IMG/VR virus record: IMGVR_UViG_2939127364_000001
Source: a virus
Lineage: Duplodnaviria > Heunggongvirae > Uroviricota > Caudoviricetes
Length of the DNA stretch: 64,000 nt
Reading direction: 5' to 3' (one strand)
Shown: positions 16,338 to 33,767 of the stretch, piece by piece
Layout of the letters: the number at the start of each line of letters is the position of its first letter
Position numbering within the stretch: position 1 is the first letter of the stretch
The notes under the pieces: model-generated
What the model saw: the letters and a program-made list of their open reading frames with translations, nothing else
Told to the model about the DNA's origin: nothing
Databases searched by the model: none
Translations under genes and position numbers: made by a program

Positions 16338-17594
16338 CTATCGAGAACCACCAAGAATAACACGGTTTTTGACTGGATACCTACGATGTACTGGATAGCC
16401 CAATGCGTCTGCACTATGCTCAATGCCACCTGTCTTATCCATATCTCGTGTTCCAGGCTTGTAGATGACTTTTTCCAGTGAATCAATCAAATGCTTGCAC
16501 TTCGGATCGATATACAGCCGGATATCTCCAGATGCGGTCATCAGCATTCGGTTAACAGCATTAACACGATCCGCAATTGGCGGGTGCTTTTTCGAATAAT
16601 CGACACGTAAGAATCCCTTCTCTTTGAATATGTCGACGTCAGACTCCCCGCGAGCATGTTGGCGATAAGCACCTGCCGGATCTGGAAATACCGTTATCTG
16701 TGATTTCCAGCGCCAGAAGCGTCTCTCAAGCTCATCACAAACCTCTGCCGTGTTAGAGGAAAAGAGCACCAATTCATCAATTGCCCATAGCTCACCATTT
16801 GGCTGAGGTTGCAAAATTACTGAAGACATCGGGTCAATGTTGAAGTCCTGCCCTACCCATATAGGCAACCGAGGGTTGAACTGAAGCGGTTTTACATGCA
16901 CGTTACGATCGAACGGGTAGTAAACGCGCCCGGACATGTTCTCAAAGCTCGCCAGGTACTCCTGAGCGAACGATTTCGGGTCCATATCGTTCTTAGCAGC
17001 TTCAATTTCCGCCGTAGGTACAAACGGAGAATCGGCAGTTACAAACTGCCAGCTCTTCCACTGTCCCTTTCTTTGCAGCTCTACGTTCTGGCCTATCGTC
17101 CACAGTTTGTGAAATTCCGAGAAGCCTTTTGGCGTACCAATGATCAGTGCACCGCCGCGTGTCGATGAAAGAGTAGGTCGTAACACCTTGTACCAGGTGT
17201 CAGCCTTCATATCCTGAAATTCATCAAGCACTACAAAATGCAACGCTACGCCGCGCAGAGTGTCAGGCTTATCAGCACCTTTGAGGGCGATCTCCGAACC
17301 GTTCTTCAACACGATTGTCATCGTGGTGTCGTTCTTTTTCCTAACCCACTTACGAGGCAGAACTTCCTGTAGATCGTCCCACAAAATCTGGCGAGCCATC
17401 TGGTAAGTAGGAGCGACATACCAGACCCTTTGCTTTTTTTCCTTTGCCGCCGCACGAATAATAGTGGAGATCGACAACCGGGATTTTCCCCAGCGTCGAC
17501 CAGCACAAACAACTTTAAATCGATGCGGAGACTGGAAGACTTTCATCTGTCCAGAATGCAGTTGCACAAGACTGAGCGAGGACGGGATTGCCAT
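16338..17594 (-). CDS. Terminase large subunit
   Basis: Walker A-like VVCAGRRWGKS, Walker B-like HFVVLDEF, C-terminal nuclease-like half with conserved acidic residues. Confidence 0.75.
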   Translation of the reverse strand: MAIPSSLSLVQLHSGQMKVFQSPHRFKVVCAGRRWGKSRLSISTIIRAAAKEKKQRVWYVAPTYQMARQILWDDLQEVLPRKWVRKKNDTTMTIVLKNGSEIALKGADKPDTLRGVALHFVVLDEFQDMKADTWYKVLRPTLSSTRGGALIIGTPKGFSEFHKLWTIGQNVELQRKGQWKSWQFVTADSPFVPTAEIEAAKNDMDPKSFAQEYLASFENMSGRVYYPFDRNVHVKPLQFNPRLPIWVGQDFNIDPMSSVILQPQPNGELWAIDELVLFSSNTAEVCDELERRFWRWKSQITVFPDPAGAYRQHARGESDVDIFKEKGFLRVDYSKKHPPIADRVNAVNRMLMTASGDIRLYIDPKCKHLIDSLEKVIYKPGTRDMDKTGGIEHSADALGYPVHRRYPVKNRVILGGSR

Positions 17595-18226
17595 TATTCG
17601 TCCTCCCCTTCACTTCCATCATCTGTCGCATCAAATTCGCTTAGAGCTTCTTCTTCCAACGTCTCAAGCAATTCGTCATCGATGATTTCAGGCTCGTCGT
17701 CTTCCTGACGTAATTTCGCCACCTGGGAAGGCGTAAGCTCACCAAATACCAGGTTCGGAATTTCTTCCTCGTCATTTTCCGCATGATCCATGCCCAATGC
17801 TTTGGACGAAACTTCAAAGCATTTTGCAAGGGTATTACTGGCTCTCTGTAAGCTCTTGAGAGAATCCTCAATCGCCCCTAAAGGCTTACCCTCACGTTTG
17901 GCCGTAGTGACTTCGACCATCACCATCTGCCCCAACGCATACGCCCAGCCGTCATAACGTGTACGACGTTCTTCTATCTTTTCCGCACGGGCTTTAGCGC
18001 GAAGCTCTGCGTCAGATTTAAGAGACTCACGAACCATCTTCCCAACAGAGTCCGCGCCTTTCTCTAATCCTCGCTTTTTGAAATGTCTGGAGAGTGTTTC
18101 ACGACGAATGCCGTACTCTTCCTCCAGCTTTGAGAGTGTATATTCGCCTGACGTCCATTTGGCTTCAGCTTCGGCCCACTCCGCTGGTGTCAGGCGAGTT
18201 TTTACCTCGTCTTTTTCGACCGTCAT
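17594..18226 (-). CDS. Terminase small subunit (putative)
   Basis: 210 aa, helix-turn-helix-like N-terminus and very acidic C-terminus; stop overlaps TerL start. Confidence 0.45.
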   Translation of the reverse strand: MTVEKDEVKTRLTPAEWAEAEAKWTSGEYTLSKLEEEYGIRRETLSRHFKKRGLEKGADSVGKMVRESLKSDAELRAKARAEKIEERRTRYDGWAYALGQMVMVEVTTAKREGKPLGAIEDSLKSLQRASNTLAKCFEVSSKALGMDHAENDEEEIPNLVFGELTPSQVAKLRQEDDEPEIIDDELLETLEEEALSEFDATDDGSEGEDE

Positions 18227-18265
18227 AGATCCCTCTAAAACACACAGAGCGCGTCCATGCGCTCT

Positions 18266-18308
18266 AAAACAACTTGTTTACTGCATCTGCTAACCAACTT
18301 GTTTTCTA
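18266..18308 (-). promoter_or_regulatory. Two copies of the AAAACAA-N-TTGTTTT palindrome upstream of the terminase small subunit gene
   Basis: AAAACAACTTGTTTACT and AACCAACTTGTTTTCTA, 40-80 nt upstream of the TerS start; a short hairpin AGAGCGC..GCGCTCT lies between them and the ATG. Confidence 0.45.
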
Positions 18309-18321
18309 GGTTGTTTAATTA

Positions 18322-18420
18322 GGTCTGGGCATGTCTTATTAAGCCTGCTTCCGTATATATTTAATAAGTTACTTATTATTTATATATACAGAAGCAGGTC
18401 TTTAAATAAGCTCCCAGACC
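18322..18420. repeat. Long imperfect inverted repeat (about 100 bp), copy 1
   Basis: GGTCTGGG...GCCTGCTTCCGTATATAT..TTAATAAGTTACTTATTATT..ATATATACAGAAGCAGG...CCCAGACC; between the end of the ParB/ABC operon and the TerS promoter region. Confidence 0.6.
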
Positions 18421-18422
18421 GA

Positions 18423-18689
18423 TTACATCACCAGTAACTTCGCTTTGGCTCGACCTAAAGTGGTTAACCCAAGAGTTCGGCGGTGATAGCGATTGTCACT
18501 GCGTTGGCGCGTATGCCCTTTCTCCACCAGCCCCTTTTTTATCAGAGCGCGAATTGAGAACTGGATACTTTGCTTGGTTGTCTTGTACGGCAAAACTTCA
18601 AGCAATTCGTCCAGATCAAGTAAATGACCTCGCTCATAACCGAGATTGAGCGTTTTGATAATGTCCTTTTGTTTATCGGTTAACGTCAT
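18423..18689 (-). CDS. Hypothetical small protein, last gene of the ParB/ABC/GNAT operon
   Basis: 88 aa basic ORF, 10 nt downstream of the GNAT-like gene. Confidence 0.3.
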   Translation of the reverse strand: MTLTDKQKDIIKTLNLGYERGHLLDLDELLEVLPYKTTKQSIQFSIRALIKKGLVEKGHTRQRSDNRYHRRTLGLTTLGRAKAKLLVM

Positions 18690-18698
18690 GGCAAATCC

Positions 18699-19598
18699 TT
18701 ATGCCGGTAAAGCAATTTCTAACGGTTTATCCAAAGGTTGTTTGTCGAATGCCAGCAGTGGCAGCGTGTCAGGCAGCCGACGACCAAAGTCAGGGTTTCG
18801 GTACACACCATACAACGGAGACGTAAAGCTCAGGTTGTGAATGTCCTTGAGCAGCTTCACAATGCTGGCCTCGTCCACCAGACTGTCGGCAATGTCCTGA
18901 ATCGTCGTGCCACGATTCCGCCCAGCTTTTGCCAGGGAACTGTTCTTGTGGTAGTCCGCTACCAGATCACGCAGTGCACGGCGACGACGAGACTCGCTCA
19001 TTGCGAACAACTCTTTGACGATCGCCTCGTTATCACCCGGGTCGGAACGGAAATGGCGCTGGAATACACGCAGTGCACTTTCATAGCTCTTCGGTCGCTC
19101 AGGGCGGATGAACTTAAACCCTGCTTTCATGGCGAAGGGATTGTATTTGCTCATCGAGGACTGGATCTCAATGATTGGCCGGTCGTGCATCCTGCTAACC
19201 AGGTTAATCATTCGATAGGAGACGCCGACACCGCGGTACTGAGTGTCCACAACGGAACGGCTGATCACCGCAAAGTTGTTGTTCACGTACCGCCCCCAAT
19301 ACTGGTTGGCCACGGTGGTATTGGTGGTTGGCTTCAGCTTAGGAAACATGCGATGGCGAGGCGCCAGCAGCAGTTTCGGGTAAGCCATAACCACGACGCC
19401 CACCAGCCGGTCGTCCAGTTCGCAGCGATAATACGTTGGCGCAAACGGCTTACCATCCGTCTTGTAGTGCAGCGACTTCAGCGCGTGCCAGTCTTCAACC
19501 GTGCCTTTGGTAACGGTCATACGCTCCAGAAAGTCCAGATGACGCGGGAACTCTTCCGGGCGGTAGCGTTTGATGATGATGCCTGTCATGTCGATCAC
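18699..19598 (-). CDS. GNAT-like acetyltransferase-domain protein with C-terminal extension
   Basis: LVGVVVMAY strand, QYRGVGVSYRMINLV (R-x-x-G-x-G/A motif A-like) and NPFAMKAGFKF (motif B-like). Confidence 0.45.
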   Translation of the reverse strand: MIDMTGIIIKRYRPEEFPRHLDFLERMTVTKGTVEDWHALKSLHYKTDGKPFAPTYYRCELDDRLVGVVVMAYPKLLLAPRHRMFPKLKPTTNTTVANQYWGRYVNNNFAVISRSVVDTQYRGVGVSYRMINLVSRMHDRPIIEIQSSMSKYNPFAMKAGFKFIRPERPKSYESALRVFQRHFRSDPGDNEAIVKELFAMSESRRRRALRDLVADYHKNSSLAKAGRNRGTTIQDIADSLVDEASIVKLLKDIHNLSFTSPLYGVYRNPDFGRRLPDTLPLLAFDKQPLDKPLEIALPA

Positions 19599-19849
19599 CT
19601 ACGCTCGATATTGGCATTGATGAAGTCCAGGCGAAGCGATTCCATCGCCCCAACCATGACGTATGGACGCCCACCGTTATGCCAGCAATCCAGCACACTG
19701 CCGTCGTTGTTGATCATCAGCAGTGCCAGGCTCTGGCTTTTGCCTTCTCTGGCGTACTGGAGTGCTTCTTCCAGCAGGCGGATGACTTCAACGTTGTTGT
19801 TGTCAGCCTCTTTCGATGGCTTCAGCTCTACGATCTTCAAATCAGGCAT
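19595..19849 (-). CDS. Hypothetical protein
   Basis: 84 aa ORF whose start overlaps the ABC ATPase gene stop and whose stop overlaps the GNAT-like gene start. Confidence 0.3.
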   Translation of the reverse strand: MPDLKIVELKPSKEADNNNVEVIRLLEEALQYAREGKSQSLALLMINNDGSVLDCWHNGGRPYVMVGAMESLRLDFINANIERR

Positions 19850-29942: not shown

Positions 29943-30338
29943 TTAAGCGAATACGCTTTCAGGGATTAAGGTGTCAGCAGGAATGCCGGAGGTAATGCGC
30001 AGGCCGTACTGACCAATCCAGGTAGTGTTGGTATTCAGGTTGGAGGCGAATACGGTGTTAACCATATTCATCATTGGTTCAAACACCTCTTCATCAACCT
30101 GGCGGAAGTAGTTCTCGATTTTCAGCAGCAGCGGGTCAGTTGCATCGAAAATAGACTGGTATTGAGTCGCGTACTCGCCGTCGGAGTCATCACCTTTACG
30201 CACGATCGTACTGGCCTGTACTTCGGCGCCAGTTTCGGTGTTGTACGTAACAACGGTGATTTTTGCCACATTCTTACCTTCGGCGGTTTCAGAGGCATAG
30301 TAAACATCAACTGTCAGTTTTTCGCGTTTAATGGTCAT
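29943..30338 (-). CDS. Hypothetical protein
   Basis: ATG 30338 (MTIKREKL...) with GGAGAG RBS; track start is an upstream TTG. Confidence 0.35.
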   Translation of the reverse strand: MTIKREKLTVDVYYASETAEGKNVAKITVVTYNTETGAEVQASTIVRKGDDSDGEYATQYQSIFDATDPLLLKIENYFRQVDEEVFEPMMNMVNTVFASNLNTNTTWIGQYGLRITSGIPADTLIPESVFA

Positions 30339-30464
30339 TTCACTCTCCGTAGTGTATTGGTTATTTTTATATTCTATGATCGTAAGTATGTACTTACAAT
30401 ACAAAAAAGCCCCGTAAGGATGGCGGGGCTGTCGTACTGTCGACTAATTACCACTTGCACATTA

Positions 30465-30776
30465 TCAGGCTATTGCCATCACTGATGCTCTCTGAATCTC
30501 TTGCTGGGCCACGCGGTTAACTTCCATCAAAGCCAGTTCGAGCTGATGTTCCGGCCACATTCTTTGAAATGCCATCCAGCCTTTTCCACGCTGGCGACGA
30601 ACATTCATTACATAACGAGTAAAGGTGTTTTTATCGAAAGACACCGCTGTTTCACGGAACAGACGAATAGAAGTTCCATTGGCAACGATGTCCAGGAAAG
30701 TTAATTGAGCAACCAGTGCAGGCTTCTCTTTTCTCTTCTGGTCTTTGTCCAGACCAAGAACCAATGATTTTTTCAT
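30465..30776 (-). CDS. Hypothetical protein (palindromic-motif regulon member)
   Basis: ATG 30776 (MKKSLVLG...) with GGAG RBS; degenerate palindrome copy just upstream. Confidence 0.35.
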   Translation of the reverse strand: MKKSLVLGLDKDQKRKEKPALVAQLTFLDIVANGTSIRLFRETAVSFDKNTFTRYVMNVRRQRGKGWMAFQRMWPEHQLELALMEVNRVAQQEIQRASVMAIA

Positions 30777-30786
30777 TACAACTCCG

Positions 30787-30803
30787 TAAACGACTTGTTT
30801 TCT
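30787..30803 (-). promoter_or_regulatory. Degenerate palindromic motif copy (AAACGACTTGTTTTCTC)
   Basis: Directly upstream of the GGAG RBS of the 30465-30776 gene. Confidence 0.35.
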
Positions 30804-30929
30804 CAATGGCGTAAATAATACCAGTAAGAAAACGGCTACAAAGCATATTGATCAGGTGCATGAGCGATATGCAGGTTCCTCCCTGCGGCTATAGAGAAAT
30901 TAAGCCAGCAATGCTGGCTTTGGTTAGGT

Positions 30930-31259
30930 TTACTCGAATACTTCAAGAAACTCCTGAACGTCCCAGTGCTGGACGAGGTGAAGATAGACCTTAGAAATAA
31001 CGTCATTTTCGCTATCGCATGTGAAGTAGTACTTCTGGCTGCGGTTGTATGTGTCCACACAAAATTCGCTCATATCCATAAAGTCAGCATCTTCACCCAT
31101 GTCGCAAATCATCAAAGCAGGTGCGTCATCACGAGTCATCAGCTCAAGCACCCACCGCGAATTGATCAGAGTGGAAGACCAACCTTCCAGCTCATAGAAC
31201 TGGTCAAACTCTTTTTGAGTCAATTTCTTGATTTGGTTGATGTCGATATTTGCAAACAT
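30930..31259 (-). CDS. Small highly acidic protein
   Basis: About 109 aa from MFANIDI, with roughly 22 Asp/Glu against 8 basic residues; AAGGA RBS; palindrome copy overlaps the track-listed upstream ATG. Confidence 0.35.
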   Translation of the reverse strand: MFANIDINQIKKLTQKEFDQFYELEGWSSTLINSRWVLELMTRDDAPALMICDMGEDADFMDMSEFCVDTYNRSQKYYFTCDSENDVISKVYLHLVQHWDVQEFLEVFE

Positions 31260-31268
31260 AAAGCAATC

Positions 31269-31285
31269 CTTAAACAACATGTTTT
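31269..31285 (-). promoter_or_regulatory. Palindromic motif variant (TAAACAACATGTTTTCT)
   Basis: Upstream of the acidic-protein gene. Confidence 0.4.
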
Positions 31286-31619
31286 CTTGATGGTGTTATT
31301 ATCGCAATAACGCACAGGCGAAAAAGGATTTTATTCCGGTGAATGTGGTTTTGGCAGTGAGTTTTCAGGTTCAGTACCGAGTACACTTTTTACATTATTC
31401 TGATTTAGTGGCCGAAGGTGGCTGGTGGGCAGAATAATCCTCTCCCCGAAAACCTACTGAAATCGATTGTGACCCGTTGGCTGTCTGGCACAATTACGCT
31501 GTAACTGGGCATTCAGAGGGAATCCAGCGGTAAGTAAGTTCGCCTGCACGTGAGCGCCTCTCTTCTTCCCGCACATTACAGGTGGGTAGCCGCAACTCTC
31601 CCTATCGCTATACCGGTAC

Positions 31620-31765
31620 GCCGCCGTTCCTGAACCGGCATCGAGCCTTTTCCCGAAATCCACACAGGCAACTCGACCGTTTCCCTGAAAATCCCCAGCC
31701 GTTCCCCGAAGGCAACCCAGCCGTTTCTGTAGCGGGATGCAGCCTTTTCCCTGTATGGACCGAAG
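31620..31765. repeat. Iteron-like direct repeats, family 1, cluster B (6 copies, 21-23 bp period)
   Basis: GCCGTTCCTGAA, GCCTTTTCCCGAAA, CCGTTTCCCTGAAAA, GCCGTTCCCCGAA, GCCGTTTCTGTAG, GCCTTTTCCCTGTA at roughly two-helical-turn spacing. Confidence 0.6.
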
Positions 31766-31899
31766 GCTAACCGTAGGGGTGTTACGGGGGATAAAATCAG
31801 GAGTTGAATAAATACGAAAAAGGAGGCGACACCCCTCCTTCCCTCCCCACTTATACATACCTGTCTTGTTCGCTATACATGTTGTGTTTTCTTCGTGTT

Positions 31900-32720
31900 T
31901 TATCTGTCTCAACCTCTCTATAGGCGTTAATGCTCACTCCTTCCAGAATGTTCTATACGGCGACTATTTCTGTTGGTGAATTGGGTGTGTCGTTCTCTCT
32001 GTCGGTGTAAATGGTTTCGTTCGTTTTGCGGTGGTTCTTCTGTGGGGTGTTCTCGTCGTTTTGGTGATTGTTCTTCTCCGTCTATGGAGTAATGGCAGGT
32101 GGGCGATTCCTTTCGTTATTGTGTTTGAGTTGTTTGTCTGGAGTGTGTGAAAGGCTTTTGTAGTTATTCGTGTATTGGGTAATGGCGTTTCCCGTGATTG
32201 TTATGTTTCGTGTCTTTTGGGATTGAGAGAAACCTTGCGGTTACAGGCTTCGTTGGGGTTTCAGTGATTCTGGTGTTTCTTCGCTGTTTGGGTAATGGCG
32301 TGTCGTGGGTATCGCGCGTATGAATGTTTTCGGATTGCCTGTGAAAGTTAGGTTGGTTGTCCGGTAGCCTGGGAAGAAGAGGTGGGTCTTTTCGGTAGCC
32401 TGCCATAAAGAGGTTGGTTGTTTTGGGGAATGACATGTGTGTTATTTAGTTGTTTTGTTATGCCTGAAAATAAGTTGTTTATATGGTTGTGTAACGCAAC
32501 GGGAACGATTTTGAGCGTGTGTTTTTGTTGGTAGTGTGTTGGATCGTCTGTGGTGAAAATTGGACGCTGTGGCGCTGTCTGCTGCGTAGAATTACGGGTA
32601 TAAGCAGTGATGTGTGAAAACGTCAATTTTTTAGACCAAATCGGGTGAAAGCGTTGATGTTTCGTTGATCTGTTATTCAGTTGTTTTCTTATTGGTATAA
32701 ACAACTATAACCTATTGATA
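31900..32720. other. Noncoding tract of about 0.8 kb, strongly G+T-rich on the plus strand, with internal direct repeats
   Basis: Few A/C on the plus strand; repeated GGTAATGGCG-containing units near 32086, 32176, 32290 and CGGTAGCCTG..AAGAGGTKGG near 32362 and 32393; only low-complexity ORFs. Confidence 0.5.
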
Positions 32721-32823
32721 TTTAAGGATGTGATTGCAGGTATAGAATGGGGGTAGTGGCGATCAACGGATTCTTATAGAAAAGAATCAAATTGTGACCG
32801 CCATTATCAATGAGTTGCAACCG

Positions 32824-33393
32824 TTAGTTGTTCAGATAAACATTTGGAACACGGACGTAGAAGTTCCTGTCGCCGGTAAGTTCCAGAGTAATGTTAATGT
32901 CATTACCATTGTCTAGTGTAGCCGTTGCTCTATAGAACTTATCCGTCACCTTGTCCTCTATTGTCACCTTCATACATTTTGGTGCAGTCGAACCGTTATT
33001 CTCTTTCAGAATGGTCGTTACGAGAGGACAAGCCGCTTCTTCAAGAGCAACCTCTTTCTGGTGTGGGATACCGATGAAGATGTTACCAGCAAGCAACGCG
33101 ACGATTACGATAAAAGGAAGTCGACTGCCTTTTGTAACGGTGGCACGTTTCCAGAGATAGACCGGAAGGAGAAATACTCCCCACAGGATGGCCGGTGGTT
33201 CATACCCTGCATCAGACAATGCCATTCTGTCAGCCACCAGAAAGCCGAGTCCAGCGACTCCACCTATCACTATTGCATAATTCAAATACTCATCTGGCGG
33301 CGCTCCAAAGAAGAGAGGCAGTAAAGCTAGAAGCCACGCATAAGCATTATTCAGAGGTTTTGTTTGTTGGTTCTGGGTTTCCATCACATCCAT
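32824..33393 (-). CDS. Inner-membrane protein with C-terminal soluble domain
   Basis: N-terminal hydrophobic helices (WLLALLPLFFG, IVIGGVAGLGFLV, ILWGVFLLPVYLW, FIVIVALLAGNIFIGI). Confidence 0.4.
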   Translation of the reverse strand: MDVMETQNQQTKPLNNAYAWLLALLPLFFGAPPDEYLNYAIVIGGVAGLGFLVADRMALSDAGYEPPAILWGVFLLPVYLWKRATVTKGSRLPFIVIVALLAGNIFIGIPHQKEVALEEAACPLVTTILKENNGSTAPKCMKVTIEDKVTDKFYRATATLDNGNDINITLELTGDRNFYVRVPNVYLNN

Positions 33394-33767
33394 TCCATCA
33401 CATAAAAATCGCGTTTATATATTATCAATTTTCTCACTTGTATAACCTAAATACGCATCCGTTTATCAATCCACCTTCCACAAACATCAGCTTTAGCTAT
33501 GAAAAATAACAATCTCAAAGTGAAAACCATTATCATAGGAAACGATTAGATGAGATGGTCTAATTCATCATCTATCATTGCTTTAACACTTGAATCATTA
33601 ACCCCGTATTGATTTATGAACCGTTTCAGCTCCGGTGAAAACTGAAGGTAGATATCGTGAGCGTTTTTCACTGTAGGTTCAACGCCACGCATTTCAAGCG
33701 CCTTTAGTAGATATGAGTCTTCTTTAAGCATAAATTCTCCGTTGTCTAGTATGAAGCGATTGCCGGA

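Follow-up and report, generated by a model that had tools for sequence, protein, structure and literature searches.

What is a long palindrome doing between the stop codon of one gene and the small-terminase gene that follows it? The question is raised by a window of 64,000 nucleotides, the whole stretch of viral DNA analysed here (IMG/VR record IMGVR_UViG_2939127364_000001), which by its sequence is an SSU5-like phage-plasmid. Around the palindrome, identity amounts to 98-99% with Escherichia phages CMS-2020a, PhiR41_1, and Cyrano (99% for CMS-2020a), to 86% with Salmonella phage SSU5, and to ~80% with Klebsiella phage-plasmids. Nearly all genes of the window lie on the minus strand, and the sense orientation of the palindromes is given below as the gene sense, i.e., the minus strand of the window. 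An earlier note on this DNA had reported an imperfect inverted repeat at 18322-18420 with a second copy near 50 kb and had proposed that such stems could serve as bidirectional terminators, RNase III sites, or recognition sites for packaging or recombination. We refer to these copies as site 1 (s1) and site 2 (s2). To this picture our analysis adds a third copy beyond the window (s3), conservation throughout the phage family, and an asymmetry between the two arms. The element is real, non-random, conserved and, as far as we could find, undescribed, since our literature search returned no description of these repeats. We tentatively read the palindromes as hairpin insulators or terminators at operon boundaries.

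The repeat stands out clearly from the sequence background. In the window, the 16-mer GCCTGCTTCCGTATAT with up to two mismatches is found only at the four arm positions of the two sites, 18343 and 50099, and, on the minus strand, 18384 and 50140. If one match with three mismatches is included, the count is five against 0.36 expected, which was reached in 0/100 shuffled sequences; this fifth match is probably due to chance. The 23-mer TTATTTATATATACAGAAGCAGG occurs exactly twice, with 0.00 occurrences expected, and the two sites align with 81% mean column identity across ~125 nt. As RNA, the two strands of each site fold much more stably than shuffled sequences (z = -9.1 and -8.5 for s1, -6.3 and -5.3 for s2), with sense-strand energies of -51.3 kcal/mol for s1 and -40.6 kcal/mol for s2 (z = -9.1 and -6.3). 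The same holds for folding as DNA (z = -9.0 for s1 and -5.5 for s2). Thus, both the inverted repeat itself and its potential to form long-stemmed hairpins are borne out. A comparison with Rfam returned only eukaryotic microRNA hairpin models below threshold, none of which scored above 25.6 bits, whereas their gathering scores are 46-211.

Site 1 is the complete form of the palindrome (18322-18420, minus strand). It lies between the stop codon of a gene annotated as encoding an 88-aa DNA-binding protein (18423-18689, minus) and terS, the gene for the small terminase subunit (17594-18226, minus), 96-194 bp upstream of the latter. Repeat search delimits two arms of 39 nt each, 18322-18360 and 18382-18420, which are 72% complementary and separated by 21 nt; an inner AT palindrome (18354-18369 / 18371-18386) is located in the spacer. 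The inner arm at 18343-18358 reads GCCTGCTTCCGTATAT on the plus strand and provides the sense 3' arm ATATACGGAAGCAGGC on the minus strand, which is the nearly invariant half of the element. Its sense 5' counterpart ACCTGCTTCTGTATAT (18384-18399, minus) is the more variable arm and carries a T opposite a G, giving a U.G pair in the sense RNA. Between the inner arms, the AT-rich core (18359-18383) contains the palindrome TAAGTtACTTA at 18365-18375. We considered TAAGTnACTTA as a dispersed operator and rejected it, as in enterobacterial elements it is present only inside the palindromes. The outer arm GGTCTGGG (18322-18329) pairs with CCCAGACC (18413-18420) and belongs to a set of CCCAGAC motifs that symmetrically flank the sites. 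The predicted s1 fold consists of helices of 17 and 7 bp and additional outer helices of 3, 6, and 8 bp.

Site 2 (50073-50156, minus) lies between the stop codon of a gene for a Dam-family methyltransferase (50178-50771, minus; Pfam Dam, E = 2e-38) and an 84-aa open reading frame (ORF; 49761-50015, minus), so that each locus of the window is located downstream of one minus-strand gene and upstream of the next, as had been described. Its inner arms of 17 nt (50098-50114 / 50140-50156) are 94% complementary and 25 nt apart. The 16-mer matches are at 50099-50114 (sense 3' arm, followed in sense by GUUUUAU at window positions 50091-50097) and at 50140-50155 (sense 5' arm), both on the minus strand. 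The claim that the two loci share their arms stands for the 16-nt inner arms and for part of the AT-rich core. The outer pair is complete at s1 only: s2 has GGTCTGGG at 50073-50080, the partner beside the other arm is degenerate (CAGACGCCAGAAC), and a better match to it, CCCTCCCAGAC, falls within the methylase gene (50232-50242). By eye, a possible weak sigma-70 promoter for the 84-aa ORF can be made out at 50023-50050 on the minus strand (sense TAGAAC, 16 nt, TAAAAT). It was not called by the promoter scan, and it is kept as TAGAAT in SSU5 and the Klebsiella element pJN2-26.

Searching the complete Cyrano genome with the arm motif revealed the third palindrome, s3, at 31159-31211. It is located between the last gene of the ParA operon and a block headed by the genes for a 246-aa protein, a DnaB-like helicase and a primase. 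Cyrano, SSU5, and pJN2-26 each contain exactly three copies, which occupy the same three intergenic regions of 175-200 bp. Each of these regions is a block boundary: s1 precedes the terminase and structural block, s2 follows the Dam methylase, and s3 separates the partition operon from the helicase/primase block. Every copy begins a few nt past a stop codon on the coding (sense) strand. The sense layout common to all copies runs from the stop codon over a few nt to (G)TCTGGGAG, ~10 nt, RCCTGCTTCYGTATATATAAATA, and the AT core of 21-27 bp, and continues with ATATACGGAAGCAGGY, a T-run (at s2 and s3 only), CTCCCAGAC, and further CCAGAC-like repeats. This layout was confirmed in seventy-odd IMG/VR contigs per site. 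Elements from E. coli, Salmonella, and Klebsiella all keep the three copies at these positions. Many E. coli elements have a 55-bp inner palindrome at s3 that matches the one at s1 in every base, whereas the two differ in Cyrano; read from these sequences, the identity shows recent gene conversion between copies. At s3, the palindrome also coincides with a mosaic breakpoint, as homology of Cyrano to SSU5 or pJN2-26 begins at the palindrome; s1 and s2 lie inside continuous homology, and the breakpoint is present at s3 only. The gene content between ParA and s3 varies, with two genes in Cyrano (29975-31134) and four in SSU5 (31231-33435), of which a DUF2971 protein alone is shared.

Conservation extends to more distant elements. 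Distant relatives carry arms that are changed yet still complementary, e.g., GCCTTGCTCCCATA/TATGGGAGCAAGGC in two contigs (L287/L288) in which the outer repeats have become CTGCGG. An Acinetobacter phage-plasmid whose large terminase (TerL) is 59% identical contains two palindromes of matching design, one of them ~550 bp upstream of terS; the outer motif in Acinetobacter is CCCAAAT. Since the design is found from Enterobacteriaceae to Acinetobacter, it must be old and maintained. Pattern scans of IMG/VR with the arm sequences gave mostly chance matches, with few new variants among the matches listed.

Does base pairing itself matter? Site-specific compensated changes suggest that it does. The pJN2-26 element has private changes that are compensated on the opposite arm at s2 (CTTTCG/CGAAAG) and at s3 (CCTGTTTC/GAAACAGG). 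RNAalifold analysis of 26 diverse copies found double changes in 6/12 consensus pairs, and 55 distinct inner-arm pairs comprise 703 Watson-Crick pairs, 39 G.U pairs, 12 A.C pairs, and 16 other mismatches. The G.U combinations of the inner arms, 39 against 12 A.C, pair in the sense RNA only. As a test of RNA versus DNA pairing, this wobble bias is not decisive, as whole-element energies and the diverse alignment gave mixed results (see below).

Functional evidence comes from published RNA-seq data for LF82, a Cyrano lysogen. The partition-operon genes CYRAN_28, CYRAN_29, and CYRAN_30 average 50, 89, and 55, and CYRAN_31, directly past s3, only 6.2, which is at or below the prophage background (median 9.8; PMC9928086). 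In other LF82 conditions, values fall from ~8.6-10.4 to 2.3-3.1 across the 194-bp s3 gap (PMC9928086); we read this column as log2(FPKM+5), with FPKM denoting fragments per kilobase per million mapped fragments, because the lowest values equal log2 5. The per-gene data thus give a transcript drop across s3 of ~100-fold or greater (PMC9928086). A scan of the region from ParA to CYRAN_31 showed that s3 is the only long, high-identity inverted repeat inside the 194-bp gap. Both sides of s2 are silent in LF82, which makes this site uninformative, and none of the three sites is followed by genes that are expressed in the lysogen (PMC9928086). The drop at s3 is the strongest functional evidence that we have. 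It speaks for an insulating or terminating role with per-gene resolution and at a paralogue beyond the window. The proposed terminator function is thereby supported indirectly and for s3 only. The attribute 'bidirectional' has no rationale because the flanking genes are co-oriented. Insulators between blocks are needed, since nearly all genes point in the same direction.

On our preferred reading, transcripts that read through from the upstream genes would carry both arms and fold into a hairpin of 24-40 bp a few nt after the stop codon. Where a U-tract follows, at s3 and weakly at s2, the hairpin would act as an intrinsic terminator and, at s3, would cause the RNA drop. As in intrinsic terminators, a stable stem-loop lies directly downstream of a gene on the transcribed strand. 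At s2 and s3 of most clades, the sense 3' arm leads straight into a T-run, which is weaker at s2; the U-tracts read GUUUUAU at s2 and from UCUUUU to UUUUUUU at s3 of relatives. A scan of the window for consensus terminators called neither s1 nor s2. These two sites may nevertheless act like s3. Site 1, which has no U-tract, would combine a pause site, a processing site (probably for RNase III) and a structure that protects the 3' end, and it would cooperate with a small conventional terminator upstream of terS to prevent leakage into the late operon. A role of RNase III is plausible given the predicted helices of 24-40 bp, and the helices predicted for s1 provide the at least ~20 bp of double-stranded RNA in a transcript that mark RNase III substrates. 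The element resembles the RNase III sites of phage T7, similar intergenic hairpins in long polycistronic transcripts, and, as with these, the hairpin remnant would protect the 3' end of the upstream mRNA. T7 sites differ in having a characteristic internal loop and in numbering about ten. With intrinsic terminators the palindromes share the stable hairpin just past the stop codon, the T-run at s3 (weaker at s2) and the sharp RNA drop at s3. They differ in the missing U-tract of s1, in a stem that is AT-rich in its upper part and 2-3 times longer than usual, in sequence that is common to sites and genera, and in the one clade that is entirely without the hairpin.

Several observations weigh against hairpin insulators as the whole explanation. 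The RNA-seq data are per gene, not per nucleotide, and come from the relative Cyrano; in the same data, RNA from CYRAN_123 to terS, i.e., across s1 and the small terminator, is only ~2-5-fold lower (PMC9928086). At s1, neither stem is followed by a U-tract, the sequence there being CAGGCTTAATAAG. The difference between sense and antisense folding energy is mixed (s1 -3.4, s2 +2.8, s3 -1.5 kcal/mol), and in the 26-copy alignment, 8 sequences have U.G and 6 have C.A at the main polymorphic pair. Moreover, template switching at quasi-palindromes could yield compensatory changes without selection. Further objections concern sequence rather than structure. The sense 3' arm (ATATACGGAAGCAGG) is nearly invariant across sites and genera while the 5' arm varies, and the same 16-nt arm with part of the core recurs at all three sites and across genera, although ordinary terminators do not share sequence between sites. 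The near-invariance of the 3' arm implies an added sequence-specific constraint that the hairpin model does not explain. The CCCAGAC motifs are concentrated at the sites as symmetric flanks, inverted upstream and direct downstream, sometimes in 3-4 copies, an arrangement that looks more like protein-binding repeats than like a stem.

The most direct challenge is posed by one Klebsiella clade that has no hairpin at all, represented by plasmid p2 of Klebsiella sp. PO552 (CP037443; TerL 87%) and related contigs. These elements have a directional unit of ~65 nt that ends in TTATTAAATATATACAGAGCTAGG and a T-run and folds no better than shuffled sequence. Of the palindrome they keep the 3' half, a 25-nt TTATTAAATATATACrGrAGCwrGG. 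PO552 p2 contains three near-identical units (L496-L498; record positions ~78967, 39469, and 39238), one at s1 and two at s3 that face each other 186 bp apart and surround a GC hairpin with ACGGAGCCAGGC in its stem. As the half-unit exists without the hairpin, the basic unit appears to be a directional motif of ~25 nt, with the palindrome representing two of them back to back, and this view implies a sequence-specific function besides, or instead of, the hairpin. Because s1 has no U-tract, the arms are unequally conserved, and the Klebsiella clade has the half-unit only, the element may have a sequence-specific role as promoter, origin or packaging site.

One way to accommodate the half-unit is a composite cassette, in which the conserved sense 3' half is a lytic-phase promoter or initial transcribed region of the downstream block. 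The 5' arm would have no other task than to stop read-through transcripts by pairing with this half, and transcripts started internally would escape. We regard this combination as unlikely, although it accounts for the near-invariant 3' arm and the drifting 5' arm, whose changes are mostly C-to-T and keep U.G pairs, as well as for the half-unit kept alone in the PO552 clade and in a series of contigs (L280-289). It also fits the location of the three sites at the heads of the three large co-oriented blocks of the genome. The small terminator ~100 nt past s1, before terS, would create a layout like a promoter, leader, and terminator under antitermination, of which lambda PR'-tR' is an example. 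However, the scan found no sense-strand sigma-70-type promoter at s1 or s2, and manual inspection no convincing pair of -35 and -10 elements. We also tried a T4-type late promoter and rejected it: the box TATAAATA is present in the sense 5' half of most copies but is not enriched genome-wide, with only 8, 9, and 4 occurrences on both strands of the three genomes. The silence of the downstream genes in the lysogen is compatible with a lytic promoter and provides no positive evidence for one. Finally, a conventional terminator within 6 nt of the half-unit in L280-type contigs is awkward for a promoter, and so are the two PO552 units that face each other at a distance of 186 bp.

The cassette idea has a precedent in PeSLs, the promoter-early stem-loop cassettes of T4-type phages (Arbiol et al., 2010, PMC2839356; Comeau et al., 2014, PMC4122927). 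Like the palindromes, PeSLs are repeated, sequence-conserved intergenic stem-loops between a stop codon and the next gene; they terminate upstream transcription, as the palindromes would do, their copies recombine among themselves, and some mark mosaic breakpoints. The mosaic breakpoint at s3 and the sequence exchange between copies follow this pattern (PMC2839356), so that conserved stem-loop, several copies, recombination between them, and mosaic junction are all present in our element. A sigma-70 promoter inside the element, as judged by scan and inspection of s1 and s2, is not. PeSLs differ in being numerous (148 mentions, many numbered, in PMC2839356), in residing in hyperplastic regions, in having a clear sigma-70 early promoter, and in stem-loops that frequently carry polyG/polyC tracts. 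The palindromes described here, in contrast, are three fixed copies of ~100 bp with an AT core of 21-27 bp and no recognisable sigma-70 promoter. Taken together, the element adds to known kinds of element and does not form a new category.

Alternatively, the palindromes could function as DNA. In a nucleoprotein site for lytic replication or plasmid maintenance, the AT core would unwind or bend, and the arms and CCCAGAC motifs would bind a phage protein. We give this explanation the same small chance as the cassette. That sequence, and not structure alone, is conserved among three sites and across genera, that the PO552 clade keeps the half-unit without the hairpin, and that CCCAGAC is enriched and symmetric around s1 and s2 would all be expected of binding sites, as would the joint change of arms and outer motifs in distant clades (CTGCGG in L287/L288 and CCCAAAT in Acinetobacter). 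The position of s3 between the ParA operon and the block of the 246-aa protein, DnaB-like helicase and primase would suit an origin, and no lytic origin is annotated in the records that we examined. The design recalls oriS/oriL of herpes simplex virus (HSV) and oriL/oriR of SPP1, in which an AT-rich centre is combined with inverted conserved boxes in dispersed copies, one of them adjoining replication genes; dispersed centromeres such as those of phage N15 offer a parallel for a maintenance site. Compared with these origins, placement at stop codons and T-runs in sense point to RNA. Such placement, the sense T-runs, and the G.U bias of the inner arms are unexpected for a pure DNA site, and the site-private compensation within one genome favours intrastrand pairing over recognition by a common protein. 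Our analysis identified no protein that binds the sites. Although s3 abuts the ParA operon, the arms are unrelated to the ParA promoter region, and neither the arms nor the CCCAGAC motif are found upstream of ParA, as a centromere would have it. GC skew was monotonic and driven by gene orientation, and we rejected it as an indicator of origins.

A related idea, which we judge distinctly unlikely, is that the palindromes extrude cruciforms or hairpins as lytic origins of the circular plasmid-prophage, with termination as a secondary use. Either a phage protein would melt the AT core, or a phage nuclease like SbcCD/gp46-47 would cut the hairpin to create double-strand ends. Such ends would be needed by a T4-like recombination-dependent replication machinery and are lacking in a circular replicon. 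T4-like recombination-replication proteins are indeed annotated (UvsX/RecA-like, UvsY, UvsW, and gp32-like).

The location of s1 upstream of terS (96-194 bp) naturally invites the suggestion, also made by the earlier note, of a packaging site. In that case, s1 would be the cos or pac site of the adjacent terminase, and s2 and s3 would be non-functional or auxiliary copies. We consider this very unlikely. The only hint is the linear GenBank record of SSU5, which opens and closes inside the s1 core at ~18361|18362 (...ACTTATTA | AATATATACGG...). However, the junction of its end and start is the exact circular sequence of the relatives, with neither duplication nor loss. The Cyrano record, whose start is one base away from that of SSU5, adds no independent evidence for an end, because it derives from plasmid pLF82, which was re-annotated and compared with SSU5 without determination of termini. 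Draft contigs often end near these regions as well, and we attribute ends near s1 or s3 to a three-copy repeat breaking short-read assemblies. Accordingly, we rejected record boundaries as more than weak evidence for virion ends. IMG/VR loci whose draft contigs stop no more than a few hundred bases away from s1 or s3 are L016, L293, L306, L345, L359, and L369. Like P1 pac, whose short repeats surround a central region, and lambda cos, s1 lies beside terminase genes with short repeats flanking a centre. Yet P1 pac and lambda cos are single-copy sites, unlike the palindrome, of which three copies are kept at conserved positions. Only s1 adjoins terS, and the other two are 30-47 kb away from the terminase, so the element is not a unique terminase-associated site. 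The large terminase (16338-17594, following terS) belongs to Pfam Terminase_6N and is only 25-41% identical to characterised relatives, with T5-like phages among the nearest ones at 25-27% identity; this family gives no support for a cos mechanism and is not informative about the type of packaging. We found no paper in the literature that reports termini of SSU5-type phages.

The least probable of the explanations considered is a functionless repeat that persists by gene conversion and self-correcting template switching. The recent conversion of s1 and s3 (seen in many E. coli elements, not in Cyrano) and the ability of quasi-palindrome correction to mimic compensatory evolution are what such a repeat would leave behind, but long palindromes are normally unstable and lost when useless, and here elements as far apart as those of E. 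coli and Acinetobacter, with TerL only 59% identical, have kept the three positions and the design. A recombination site of the Xer/dif or lox type was rejected from sequence alone because an orientation-free palindrome in three copies would delete or invert the DNA between them and because the spacer is far too long.

In clinical Enterobacteriaceae and Acinetobacter, phage-plasmids of the SSU5 type are a common finding, and they carry resistance genes. The records that we examined annotate no origin, packaging site or transcription signal in these elements, and the literature that we found describes none. An element that divides the ~108-kb genome into three co-oriented blocks therefore offers a handle on how lytic genes are kept silent during plasmid replication, and should the conserved half-unit prove to be a promoter or to bind a protein, it would reveal where the lytic programme is controlled. 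What makes the element attractive is this half-unit, whose conservation is unexplained, and the prospect of working out how control is organised in a phage-plasmid family that is common in the clinic. On the practical side, short-read assemblies appear to break at the repeat, and the arbitrary start of the SSU5 reference genome may go back to it.

The surroundings of s1 contain further conserved motifs. Directly before the terS ribosome-binding site, outside the palindrome, lies a GC hairpin, AGAGCGC-ATGGAC-GCGCTCT followed by GUGUGUUUU (18236-18266, minus), which looks like a second, conventional terminator or attenuator and which suggests that expression of the late operon may need antitermination or an activator. 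It is kept in all close relatives, and an analogous hairpin with a T-run precedes terS in Acinetobacter phage-plasmids. Between s1 and terS there are also two copies of the 13-bp palindrome AAACAAnTTGTTT (18267-18279 and 18292-18304). With at most one mismatch, it occurs 11 times in the window against 0.5 expected, the other positions being 28388, 29885, 30788, 31272, 32468, 34081, 34132, 46945, and 47674, and exact copies number 9-11 per complete relative. In Cyrano, the copies are located ~25-55 bp upstream of start codons, including those of terS, ParA, the helicase, and others. By its distribution, AAACAAnTTGTTT is probably the operator of a global regulator.

A string of genes at 18423-21178 (minus) and upstream directly precedes s1 and terS in E. 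coli, Salmonella, and Klebsiella elements and, more loosely, in Acinetobacter. It encodes two proteins with ParB-N domains, an ABC-type ATPase, an ATPase-acetyltransferase fusion (Cyrano annotation, MK0520-like), and the 88-aa DNA-binding protein. In the Acinetobacter baumannii plasmid NZ_CP107617 (L493-L495), a 14-bp palindrome, A(A/G)TAAG(C/T)GCTTA(T/C)T, is present at no fewer than a dozen places, mostly just upstream of genes such as terS, the major capsid gene, the primase gene, and others, and the two large palindromes are centred on it as well.

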